From NCBI GenBank assembly GCA_964016885.1, contig OZ024746.1, positions 56,296,001-56,360,000 of the forward strand: a stretch of DNA of 64,000 bases, given 5' to 3'. This document shows positions 11,721 to 59,899 of this stretch, one piece after another. Below the pieces are notes generated by a model. It was not told where the DNA came from. It did not search any database and saw nothing but the letters and a program-made list of their open reading frames with translations. Both the position numbers and the translations under genes were made by a program. Origin of the DNA: Eledone cirrhosa. Lineage: Eukaryota. How positions within the stretch are numbered: position 1 is the first letter of the stretch; every line of letters begins with the position of its first letter.

Positions 11721-12337
11721 CTAAGATGGACGCCATAATCAAATCAATCATCGATGTTCGTTATATACCAATATATATTTTAGATTTCCTATTGTACCAC
11801 AACTAAAATTCTTGTATTGAAGGAATACATAAATGGAAGTGACTAAACCAACTAATGTGTTTCATGTGGTGCTATAACTTGCTTACATTTACCTTCATCT
11901 CTCACTGACTCACTCTCTATCTCTTTCTCTTTCTCTCTCTCTCTTTCTCTCTCCCTCTCACACACTCTCTCCCTCTCTCACTTTATATATATATATATAT
12001 ATATATATATATATATATATATATATATCAAATGTGAGAAATACCACAGACCCTCCATTTTAATTCTACTTTTGAAAAGCACAAGAACTGCCGAACCGGT
12101 AAGGGAAGGAAATAAATATATTTAAAAAAAGACTCCAGTTGCATTTTCGATTTCATCTGTTTTCCTTATACTTCCACTCGTGTAGGTCACGTCGGTTCTT
12201 TTTTATTTTGTAAAAAAAACCTCACTATCTAATATATATAGTGGTGGAACACTGGAAGGTAATATCGTTAGTTGTAGAGCACTCAGTCCAAGGGACGAGT
12301 TAGGTAGAAGTGGTTACACAACAGTTAGTTCACCATA

Positions 12338-12377
12338 CCGAGAACAATTGTTTCACCTTCGCGGATCTTCAACTCGG
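12338..12377 (-). ncRNA. Minimal hammerhead, C3U variant (family C)
   Basis: ccgag TTGAAGA t cc gcgaa gg t GAAA caattg TT ctcgg. Confidence 0.65.
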
Positions 12378-12767
12378 GATGTGTATGGTTATAGGAACAG
12401 GAAGGACAACCGTACGAACGCGCATGCGCAGAAACTCGGTCAATTCACACATGCAATACTAGACTGCATGCGGGGGTTTAAGGGAGATAACTGCGAAAGT
12501 CCGGAAAGTTTTTGGGTTGAAAATAAAATAAAAAAATTAAAAATAAAATTACAAAGAATCAGTCCGGAGCCTTGTAGATATGCAATAGATGTTTGGTGAC
12601 GTGTGGACAACGTGTGAAAAATTCACCTCTCGTGTTTACGCAATCACTATTGCGTAATCTTTTTACGCCTCCCGCACGCAGTCTAGTATTGCCTGTGTGA
12701 AGTGACCGAGTTTCTGCGCATGCGCTTTCGTACGGTTGTCCTTGCTGTTCCTATAAACGTACACATC

Positions 12768-12807
12768 CCGAGCTGAAGATCCGCGAAGGTGAAACAATTG
12801 TTCTCAG
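12768..12807 (+). ncRNA. Minimal type I hammerhead (family C)
   Basis: ccgag CTGAAGA t cc gcgaa gg t GAAA caattg TT ctcag; palindromic stem III ACAATTGT. Confidence 0.75.
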
Positions 12808-12839
12808 TATGGTCAACTAACTTTTGTGTAACCAATTCT

Positions 12840-13437
12840 ATAAATATATATATATATATATATATATATATATATATATATATATATATATATATATATA
12901 TATATATATATGTATATATATATATATATATATATATATATATATATATATATATATATATGTATATATATATATATATATATATATATATATGTATATA
13001 TATATATATATATATATGTATATATATATATATATATATATGTATATATATATATATATATATGTATATATATATATATATGTATATATATATATATATA
13101 TATATATATATATGTATATATATATATATATGTATATATATATATATATATGTATATATATATATATATATGTATATATATATATATATGTATATATATA
13201 TATATAAATATATATATGTATATATATATATATATATGTATATATATATATATATATATATGTATATATATATATATATATGTATATATATATATATATA
13301 TATATATATATGTATATATATATATATATATATATATGTATATATATATATATATATATATATGTATATATATATATATATATATATATGTATATATATA
13401 TATATATATATATATATGTATATATATATATATATAT
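12840..13437. repeat. Long (TA)n microsatellite
   Basis: Direct sequence. Confidence 0.98.
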
Positions 13438-57825: not shown

Positions 57826-57852
57826 TATAAATATATATATATATATATATAT

Positions 57853-58658
57853 AAGTTGAAATAAAATGAAAACGAAATTTCATTTCTCACTCCTAGTACG
57901 GCACTTACTTAAATGTAAGTATGTGTGTATACGTACATACATATATGTATACAGACGCACAGTAGCATGCATATATATATATATATATATATATATATAT
58001 ATATATATATATACATACAGGTACACATACATATATGCACGTATCAGTCTAGCGGACGCTTACTATAACGCCGCTTTGTTCGTTTGTAAACAAACTGAAC
58101 AGCCTGAATTTTTATGCCGTACGGTGTTAAGGCAACCACGTCACCCTTTTGTCCAACACTGACACAGGAACGATGTACTAGTTTCAAGCTTGTTAGCTAT
58201 CATCAGCACCGTATACCCATCTGTCAGATAGTTGAACGTTTTCGGTATGCCTGCCCGACTTAGCTCACTCGATATGCAAATTAGGCTGCTCTGCCGTTAA
58301 TTTTCATAAGGAAAGTATATACTTTCGAACGTTCAACTAACTGGCAGATGGATATACGGTGCTGATGATAGCTAACAAGCTTGAAACTAGTACATCGTTC
58401 CTGTGTCAGTGTTAAACAAAAGGGTGACGTGGTTGCCTTAACACCTTACGGCATAAAAATTCAGGCTGTTCAGTTTGTTTACAAACGAACAAAGCGGCGT
58501 TATAGTAAGCGTCCGCTAGACTGATACGTGCATATATGTATGTGTACCTGTATGTATATATGTATATATATATATATATATATATATATATATATATATA
58601 TGCATGCTACTGTGCGTCTGTATACATATATGTATGTACGTATACACACATACTTACA
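57853..58658. repeat. Family A1 head-to-head pair
   Basis: HHRs at 58170-58212 (-) and 58356-58398 (+); inversion at about 58237; TA-flanked. Confidence 0.9.
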
Positions 58659-58737
58659 TATATATATATATATATATATATATATATATATATATATATA
58701 TATATATATATATATATATATATATATATATATATAA

Positions 58738-58972
58738 AGAATGAATAGTAACAGGTAGACATCAAAAAAGGTAATTTATTCCGTGTGCTTACAAATGTTT
58801 CCACGGTGGTACTACCGTGGTACAACAGTGGTCACAGCATTGGATATTTGAGTTCTGCAAATGCTTGTAAATTTGCACATAGCATAACTAGGCTGTAGTA
58901 CCACCGTGGAAACATTTGTAAGCACACGGAATAAATTACCTTTTTTTGATGTCTACCTGTTATTATTCATTA
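58738..58972. repeat. TA-flanked inverted repeat (arms about 78 bp)
   Basis: 58738-58815 is the reverse complement of 58896-58972. Confidence 0.85.
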
Positions 58973-59293
58973 TTTATATACACTCCGGAATACAGAAGGA
59001 TCAGGAACTAAGTTTCTTCAACAATTCTTCCATAACTCGTACAGTAACCTCTCACCGTACGTCAACCATATCCAGTGTAGTAATCCTATACCTAATATAT
59101 ATATATATATATATATATATATATATATATATATATATATATATATATATATATATATATATACATATATTTATTTATATATATATATACATATATTTAT
59201 TTATATATATATATATATTTATATATATGTATATATATATATTTATATATATGTATATATATATGTATATATATATATATATATGTATATATA

Positions 59294-59899
59294 TATTAAG
59301 ACAGGGGGGAAGAAAAAATGGCTTCACTTGTGCTTTCAACAAATTTATTTTCTTCACAAAATCCAAAAATAATTTTTTTCCGGATTAGAAACAAATTTTT
59401 TTTTTTTTTTTTTTTTCTTAAAAAAAAATTATTTTATAAATTAAGTTGTTGGTTGTTGGTTAGGTCTTAGGAGTTCTTGGTTAACGTAGGAGGTAGTTTT
59501 TCGTTTTTAGAAAGACCTTTCACGCTGAGGTGCGCTTGTCAAACTGATGTGTATGTGGTGTGTTGTTCTATATATAGGGATTTAACATATATATATAAAG
59601 AATTTATTAGTTAACAATCGTTTCTATAGTGTATGGGTTACCTATACCTCGCTATTTGAATAATATAAAAATATTGTCATAAACCGAAGGTACACTGCAA
59701 GCAAACACACCATGTCGTCATACCTTTGTATTGGAATGACCAACAACTTAATTTATAAAATAATTTTTTTTAAGGAAAAAAAAAATAAAAAAAATTGTTT
59801 CTAATCGGGAAAAAAATTATTTTTTCGATTTTGTGAAGAAAATAAATTTGTTGAAAGCACAAGTGAAGCCATTTTTTCTTCCCCCCCTGTCTTAATATA
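59294..59899. repeat. Inverted-repeat element (arms about 135 bp)
   Basis: 59294-59432 is the reverse complement of 59761-59899; weak HHR-like motif at 59509-59545 (-). Confidence 0.8.

Follow-up and report, generated by a model that had tools for sequence, protein, structure and literature searches.

Head-to-head hammerhead-bearing inserts of Eledone cirrhosa pair a tail end with a short end and may be primed from both ends of a break in (TA)n

Results

Organization of the Locus

The window analyzed here is a stretch of 64,000 nucleotides from Eledone cirrhosa (genome, 3.0 Gb; assembly GCA_964016885.1, contig OZ024746.1, positions 56,296,001–56,360,000). (TA)n is dense throughout it, and many of its inserts consist of two inverted arms joined head-to-head, with the minus-strand arm on the left, the plus-strand arm on the right, and the 3′ ends facing outward. 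In each family the 3′ end takes one of two fixed positions, the short end or, 38–166 nt beyond it, the tail end. The features are listed below by position in the window.

4450..4563: head-to-head insert of family I; left arm consisting of tail only, right arm with the short end
4766..6712: two-family head-to-head insert; family F on the minus strand with the tail end, 5′-truncated PLE1 on the plus strand with the short end
12240..12840: family C insert (3′ repeat, Hydra-like PLE by its motifs); tail end left, short end right, junction at ∼12664
13436..16662: family A2 retrozyme-like array of a 463-nt unit; 0.44 unit minus (tail end) and 6.53 units plus (short end)
18395..24488: family A1 retrozyme-like array of a 424-nt unit; 10.62 units minus (tail end) and 3.76 units plus (short end)
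26197..26295: old inverted pair of family J; lacks adjoining (TA)n, hammerhead frame of U3-A8 type
27229..28150: family B insert; short left arm with tail, long right arm with short end, not a simple fold-back
28225..28968: plus strand; single arm of family A, its 5′ end joined to (TA)n, an exception to the rule
29174..29623: minus strand; PLE2 3′ fragment, single arm
29977..30597: family D insert, unit ∼490 nt; short end left, tail end right
32485..32712: family I insert; tail end left, short end right, only the 3′ half of the hammerhead frame
42367..42676: B-related insert, not listed before; non-overlapping arms, short end left, tail-only arm right
49856..50906: family E insert, unit ∼595 nt, U3-A8 core; tail end left, short end right
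51072..52960: minus strand; 5′-truncated PLE2, Hydra-like by motif, with a CxCx5C linker and, at its C terminus, a GIY-YIG-type motif
55952..57435: older family A head-to-head array; right end adjoins a PLE2 3′ end rather than (TA)n
57851..58659: family A2-like insert; tail end left, short end right
58737..59094: family H inverted insert, not listed before; one-sided 117-nt tail
59297..59932: family G inverted insert, not listed before; one-sided 38-nt tail, no hammerhead found
59970..63672: plus strand; broken PLE1, single arm with the tail end, with RT, a CX4CX2C linker, a C-terminal GIY-YIG-type motif, and an Asn-rich segment
7795, 9464, 10745, 31413, 37086, 41662, 53067, 55529: copies of a SINE-like repeat

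The first-pass annotation had placed minus-left and plus-right arms at ten sites (12300-12838, 13438-16660, 18397-24487, 27316-28152, 29980-30482, 49855-50911, 55952-57435, 57853-58658, 26197-26295, and 32484-32712). Self-comparison and mapping to family references found all ten to be head-to-head in that sense, and five further head-to-head inserts, at 4450, 4766, 42367, 58737, and 59297, were added. The earlier bounds needed extending where one arm reaches further out, the true outer ends lying at 12240, 27229, and 30597. Orientation had been read from the hammerhead. This is sound in that relatives of the insert at 12300 carry a PLE reading frame on the same strand; it does not extend to every arm, since the left arm at 13436-13641 lacks a ribozyme of its own and was oriented by homology. 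The outer ends, said earlier to fuse mostly to (TA)n, do not do so at 26197 or at the right end at 57435.

In the two-family insert at 4766, the family F hammerhead occupies 4900-4971, and the joint between F and PLE1 shows a 3-nt microhomology. The junction of the A2 array (13436..16662) also shows 3 nt of microhomology. All units of the A1 array (18395..24488) are identical, and its arms meet in 2 nt of microhomology at 22896-22897.

Several further repeats were observed. Two inserts are separated by 600 nt of (TA)n in which G interruptions recur at regular spacing (12844-13438); tracts of this pattern adjoin other loci too and perhaps reflect priming slippage or later expansion. Broken LINE-type elements with endonuclease-like and RT frames lie at 3412-4330 and 42778-49731 (the latter with an RVT_1 match at 47556-48218), outside the head-to-head rule. 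The SINE-like dispersed repeat, 170–190 nt long, has at least eight copies in the window, on both strands. Short inverted repeats were also seen at 36666-36719 and at 37920-38125, the latter matching a repeat at 12029-12232.

Hammerhead Motifs

A relaxed type I motif scan gave 37 hammerhead matches in the window, compared with one to three in each of three shuffles. These matches cover the inserts at 12300, 13438, 18397, 27316, 29980, 55952, and 57853. The insert at 49855 belongs to family E, in which 30 relatives were examined and a U3-A8 core was present in 22 of the 23 with a frame; the same core was found in all 12 copies of family J (26197). This core variant has been described in PLE ribozymes (PMC4209133). 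The family I insert at 32484 has only the 3′ half of the hammerhead frame. Among 30 copies, three showed the 5′ half, and their cores varied. In this family (L253-L282), the 5′ ends cluster within the predicted stem II loop, which explains why most copies are without the first half of the core.

The ribozymes described here are motif predictions, and minimum-energy folds often differ from the active hammerhead fold. No hammerhead family appeared among the 150 of 439 Rfam matches listed for the window, which were mostly microRNA look-alikes on simple repeats. A hammerhead-like frame of doubtful activity is present in the PLE2 3′ repeats at 29199-29247 and 57456-57506, its core position 4 being A and its cut site U; U occupies the cut site in family C as well. 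In families B and F, many 5′ ends cluster ∼180 nt upstream of the short end (∼27970 in the window). The cluster, which in B lies ∼130 nt upstream of the ribozyme cut site, possibly marks the transcript start.

Relationship of the Inserts to PLEs

Relatives of family C carry RT and GIY-YIG-type frames, in pieces, on the hammerhead strand, and CxCx5C and RWR are present. PLE2 relatives have open frames of 713 aa with RT motifs and a C-terminal YIG motif; the frame at L299 contains RWR, DKT, and CxCx5C. The Hydra clade is recognized by an RWK-like motif, DKT, a CxCx5C linker, a C-terminal endonuclease, and a (TA)n target (Craig 2021, PMC8557442). By these motifs, family C and PLE2 appear Hydra-like, and family C is identified as the 3′ repeat of such an element. 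In PLE1, CX4CX2C lies upstream of YIG, in agreement with the CX2-5CxxC linker before a C-terminal GIY-YIG by which Neptune/Nematis-type elements are defined; on this linker motif PLE1 is assigned to that type. Pfam barely recognized the PLE fragments, with a single sub-cutoff GIY-YIG match in the PLE1 copy at 5708. The 5′ part of PLE1 (60137-60847) includes the Asn-rich segment, which recalls the N-rich inserts of Adineta Penelope elements (Arkhipova 2013, PMC3846280) but differs from them in position relative to the domains.

RT and GIY-YIG in one frame, an inverted 5′-truncated copy, and a one-sided tail, the features of EN+ PLE insertions, were all found. The inserts carry the known PLE footprint of an inverted 5′ copy, a one-sided tail, and a (TA)n target. 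The first-pass annotation had proposed one mechanism shared by at least five unrelated RNA families. In BLAST comparisons, A, B, C, D, and E indeed gave no DNA matches to one another. The description is nevertheless overstated, because C is a PLE 3′ repeat and the other four are probably PLE passengers.

Orientation of the Arms across the Genome

The genome was searched with eight families from the window, and flanks were fetched. Loci were the best-scoring matches, not a random draw: they came from the best 150 of 415 matches for A1 and the best 150 of 240 for A2, with 25–30 loci for each other family. The sample is accordingly biased toward young copies and copies covering the query, with no selection on the orientation of a partner. 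The orientation tally that the first-pass annotation had suggested was run by script on 252 loci and the window (1.31 Mb, in which a few duplicates are possible). Minus-then-plus neighbors numbered 217, of which 187 were direct joins, 185 of these within one family. Plus-then-minus neighbors numbered 85: 78 are separated by at least 10 nt of (TA)n, 1 spans an assembly gap (L043), and the 6 direct ones all join different families. Direct inverted joins within one family were therefore head-to-head in 185 cases and tail-to-tail in none. The 78 pairs lying across (TA)n are read as separate insertions into a shared TA tract. In the window, such pairs of a plus arm, (TA)n, and a minus arm occur at 12840/13436, 28968/29174, 30597/30646, 50906/51072, 58659/58737, and 59094/59297, so that the earlier statement that no tail-to-tail case exists holds for direct joins only.

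By hand, 224 distinct anchor inserts outside the window were tallied, with four rows reclassified. Head-to-head arms with both standard ends were seen in 119 and head-to-head arms with one end elsewhere or hidden in 24; 2 had a partner of another family, and 79, about a third, showed no partner arm. The head-to-head rule has single-arm exceptions in the window too, such as 28225-28968 and 59970-63672. Two-armed inserts had a TA-like flank on both sides in 56 of 79 cases and on at least one side in 77 of 79, the latter judged by eye. As the flanks are (TA)n, target-site duplications are unreadable.

Each Insert Pairs One Tail End with One Short End

A further rule, beyond those of the first-pass annotation, is that each insert has one end of each kind. 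Measured from the cut site, the short and tail ends lie at 218 and 277 in A1 and at 246 and 308 in A2. Scored by script, the direct same-family joins comprised 130 tail/short pairs, 44 with an end elsewhere, and 11 with the same end twice. Upon inspection for a missing PLE2 tail, 7 of these 11 became tail/short. Of the others, one reflected a repeat located upstream within a long short-end arm (L222), another was truncated at the edge of its locus, and L075 and L166 were real exceptions. This leaves 138 mixed-end against 2 same-end pairs. No fold common to the tails was found across 11 families (z from +1.3 to −3.5). The idea that the outer ends are set by the best TA microhomology was rejected, because family A arms do not usually end at their internal (TA)8.

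Family A Arrays

The A1 and A2 arrays consist of tandem non-coding units, each with a type I hammerhead, as in retrozymes. Families D and E also show unit-length repeats (∼490 and ∼595 nt), mostly of 1–1.5 units. Arrays of near-identical family A units reach ∼25 copies (L118 with L043 and L225), and identical units occur at many unlinked loci and contigs. The A1 unit folds strongly (z −7.7), partly owing to self-complementary TA/CA tracts. A 389-nt contig in a run labeled as another organism matches the A1 unit without differences over the compared part; it may come from a close relative, contamination, or transfer.

The 5′ ends of family A arms are enriched at positions 1–20 past the cut site (11/62, p = 1e-4). 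Of 15 arms stopping at the ribozyme cut site, 12 are short-end arms, and in 6 of these 12 inserts the tail arm is longer. One linear RNA ending at the cut site cannot give the longer tail arm, which would fit either a circle with a stall near the ligation site or two RNAs. The template of family A was probably a small circle.

Evidence for Probable Priming from Both Ends of a Break

Several observations bear on how the two arms arise. In 39 family A inserts, the tail arm was longer in 21 and the short-end arm in 18; the two lengths were uncorrelated (rho −0.13) and within 10% of each other in only 3. Thirty-one of 45 family A junctions were resolved by an exact-match script, the other 14 being left out of the microhomology count. 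Eleven of the 31 carry inserted bases, often templated; of the 20 without inserted bases, 15 show at least 2 nt of microhomology, where chance would give 18% (p = 5e-8). Eighteen inserts outside the window and 3 within it have a tail arm in which the other arm is not contained, and that other arm has no tail. The 18 comprise 5 of family C, 8 of B, 4 of D, and 1 of I; two of the B rows have the same breakpoints and could represent a single event. In these 21 inserts, neither arm can have been copied from the other, and they are not simple fold-backs. Three inserts (that at 4766, L059, and L063) join two families, each with one tail end and one short end, and neither family was seen to continue beyond its partner. 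Minor variants were present on both arms in all five young A1 inserts that carried one in the overlap of the arms. In L116, the arms differ at one site. Two pairs of unlinked inserts, L131/L142 and L084/L103, share the same junction, through recurrent joining or later duplication.

The pairing of end points makes it likely that the enzyme copies RNA at either side of a single DNA break. The reading we prefer, and hold to be probable, is that the two strands of a TA repeat are cut by the PLE enzyme and that reverse transcription then starts from each cut end, at one of two fixed RNA sites. The two cDNAs would stop at largely independent points and anneal by 1–7 nt, with gaps filled in. Both would usually copy the same RNA, as suggested by the rare variants that the arms share, and occasionally two different RNAs. 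In family A, both enzymes may run round a small circle, giving up to ∼25 units per insert. Priming of both break ends followed by central joining had already been put forward in the first-pass annotation, and it is the best-supported model here; obligatory use of it is contradicted by the 79 of 224 anchor inserts without a partner arm and the 24 with one end elsewhere or hidden.

The counts favor this model over one in which a single target-primed cDNA folds back, or an antisense RNA primes itself, and the palindrome center is later lost by microhomology-mediated deletion. Deletion at palindrome centers is established and would leave microhomology, and together with folding back it can mimic asymmetry; head-to-head arms with common variants would also result. 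The near-palindromic joints of L114, L116, L135, L147, and many family I copies, and one mirrored unit-specific variant in L116, fit folding back and count against priming from two ends. Self-priming on an antisense template has been proposed (Arkhipova 2013). Such an origin would, however, require one-sided deletions of up to several kb despite near-identical units (L128 has 0.49 against 12.38 units), and it cannot yield two-family pairs. It also makes the tail arm the primary copy, yet the arm stopping at the cut site is usually the short-end arm (12/15). We regard it as unlikely. In older families, the own-arm similarity test is weak and counts against two-end priming: 20 of 30 cases fell below the mean and the own arm was closest in 7, with the comparison of own-arm and other-arm divergence confounded by age. 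A separate RNA molecule at each end, with family A arrays made from linear multimeric transcripts instead of circles, seems more doubtful still. Two-family pairs show that two RNAs can be used, the enrichment of 5′ ends 1–20 past the cut site is in keeping with it, and uncleaved RNA is reported as the dominant substrate of PAc in vitro (Frangieh 2024, PMC11167929). Against it, the arms have rare variants in common, two free RNAs alone do not explain one end of each kind, and identical units in arrays of 10–25 copies fit a single-unit template.

That the arrays are satellite DNA amplified in place, with inversions at the DNA level and no RNA, finds some footing in the expansion of tandem arrays by unequal crossover, a model cited in bioRxiv 10.64898/2026.07.22.740005, and in the internal TA expansions of some arrays. 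It is highly improbable given the identical units at many unlinked loci, the fixed outer ends, an orientation that tracks the ribozyme strand, and the non-tandem PLE fragments that follow the same rule. The joints might finally be artefacts of assembly or long-read chimeras: for the two window stretches compared, no bridging of the window joints was seen among the filtered read-derived contig matches listed, and one apparent tail-to-tail pair (L043) spans an assembly gap. Head-to-head joints of the same families elsewhere were seen in read-derived contigs (11 + 2 rows, from runs that may be the assembled sample), divergence between the two arms of older inserts reaches 7%, and the pairing of tail ends with short ends would not arise from an artefact. 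This last explanation is the least credible of all.

Discussion

The head-to-head rule is not new. Head-to-head is the commonest arrangement observed for PLE insertions (Arkhipova 2013), and an inverted 5′ copy, a one-sided tail, and (TA)n targeting have been described, by a mechanism termed unresolved (Craig 2021). The inserts studied here resemble EN+ PLE insertions as described in these sources in the inverted 5′-truncated copy, the head-to-head bias, the tail at one end, the (TA)n target, and terminal-repeat hammerheads. The tails differ in length, 38–166 nt here against the 30–40 nt reported for EN+ PLEs (PMC3846280, PMC8557442). The one-of-each pairing counted here is a second difference, since the accounts in PMC3846280 and PMC8557442 invoke self-priming or resolution by the endonuclease and not two primers.

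The closest biochemical parallel is PAc, the purified Poseidon protein, which cuts and extends both strands and uses two RNA start sites that bound the tail (PMC11167929). It is a predicted dimer (PMC11167929). An AT-rich target is common to that system and the present inserts, and on the two-end reading so would be cutting and extension of both strands and two RT start sites bounding the tail. In the text of that account available to us, the two sites are not linked to the two arms of one insertion, and inverted products are not discussed. PAc primes without target homology (PMC11167929), whereas most short-end sites here lie in or beside TA-like letters, which counts against the two-end model.

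Tandem non-coding units with one type I hammerhead each are shared with metazoan non-LTR retrozymes (Cervera and de la Pena 2020, PMC7229834; bioRxiv 10.64898/2026.07.22.740005), for which mobilization of retrozyme circles by PLEs has been proposed in the same works. The units here are longer, 424–595 nt against ∼170–400 nt. In the available text of these two sources, a term look-up turned up neither inverted two-armed arrays nor fixed ends.

Neither head-to-head retrozyme arrays nor the one-of-each rule as two-end priming was found in the text of the literature searched; Figure S2 of Frangieh and Figure S9 of Cervera could bear on this. LINE-1 twin priming is characterized by arms without overlap, a second primer annealing internally at a chance position, and a poly(A) end. 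The present inserts do not match it: overlap of the arms is usual, the position of the second site is constant, and (TA)n adjoins the outer ends. One family C insert (L062) shows the classic abutting twin-priming geometry. LINE-1 twin priming and two-RNA junctions are alike to the present inserts in that both break ends are extended by RT, the 3′ ends face outward, and the join is central; the two RNAs are sometimes different, as here (bioRxiv 10.1101/2024.12.14.628481).

The one-tail-one-short rule holds even when the arms come from different families, and it may for that reason be a property of the enzyme complex. Tentatively, a PLE dimer could hold a single RNA by two fixed sites, each serving one end of a double-strand break in (TA)n; where that RNA is a retrozyme circle, the two reverse transcriptases might follow each other around it, writing 10–25 identical units in one step as a head-to-head array.

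The layout is known, and a genome-scale test and the extension to long retrozyme arrays were not found in print; with the layout already published, the value of the analysis lies in the mechanistic test. How PLEs make inverted insertions with one tail is treated as an open question, as is the mobility of retrozymes via circular RNA by PLEs, in the parts of PMC8557442, PMC11167929, and PMC7229834 that concern them. The very young copies and intact-looking PLE frames found here permit exact predictions for the existing in vitro PLE assay: there should be two start sites, one per strand, and a circular template should give multimers.
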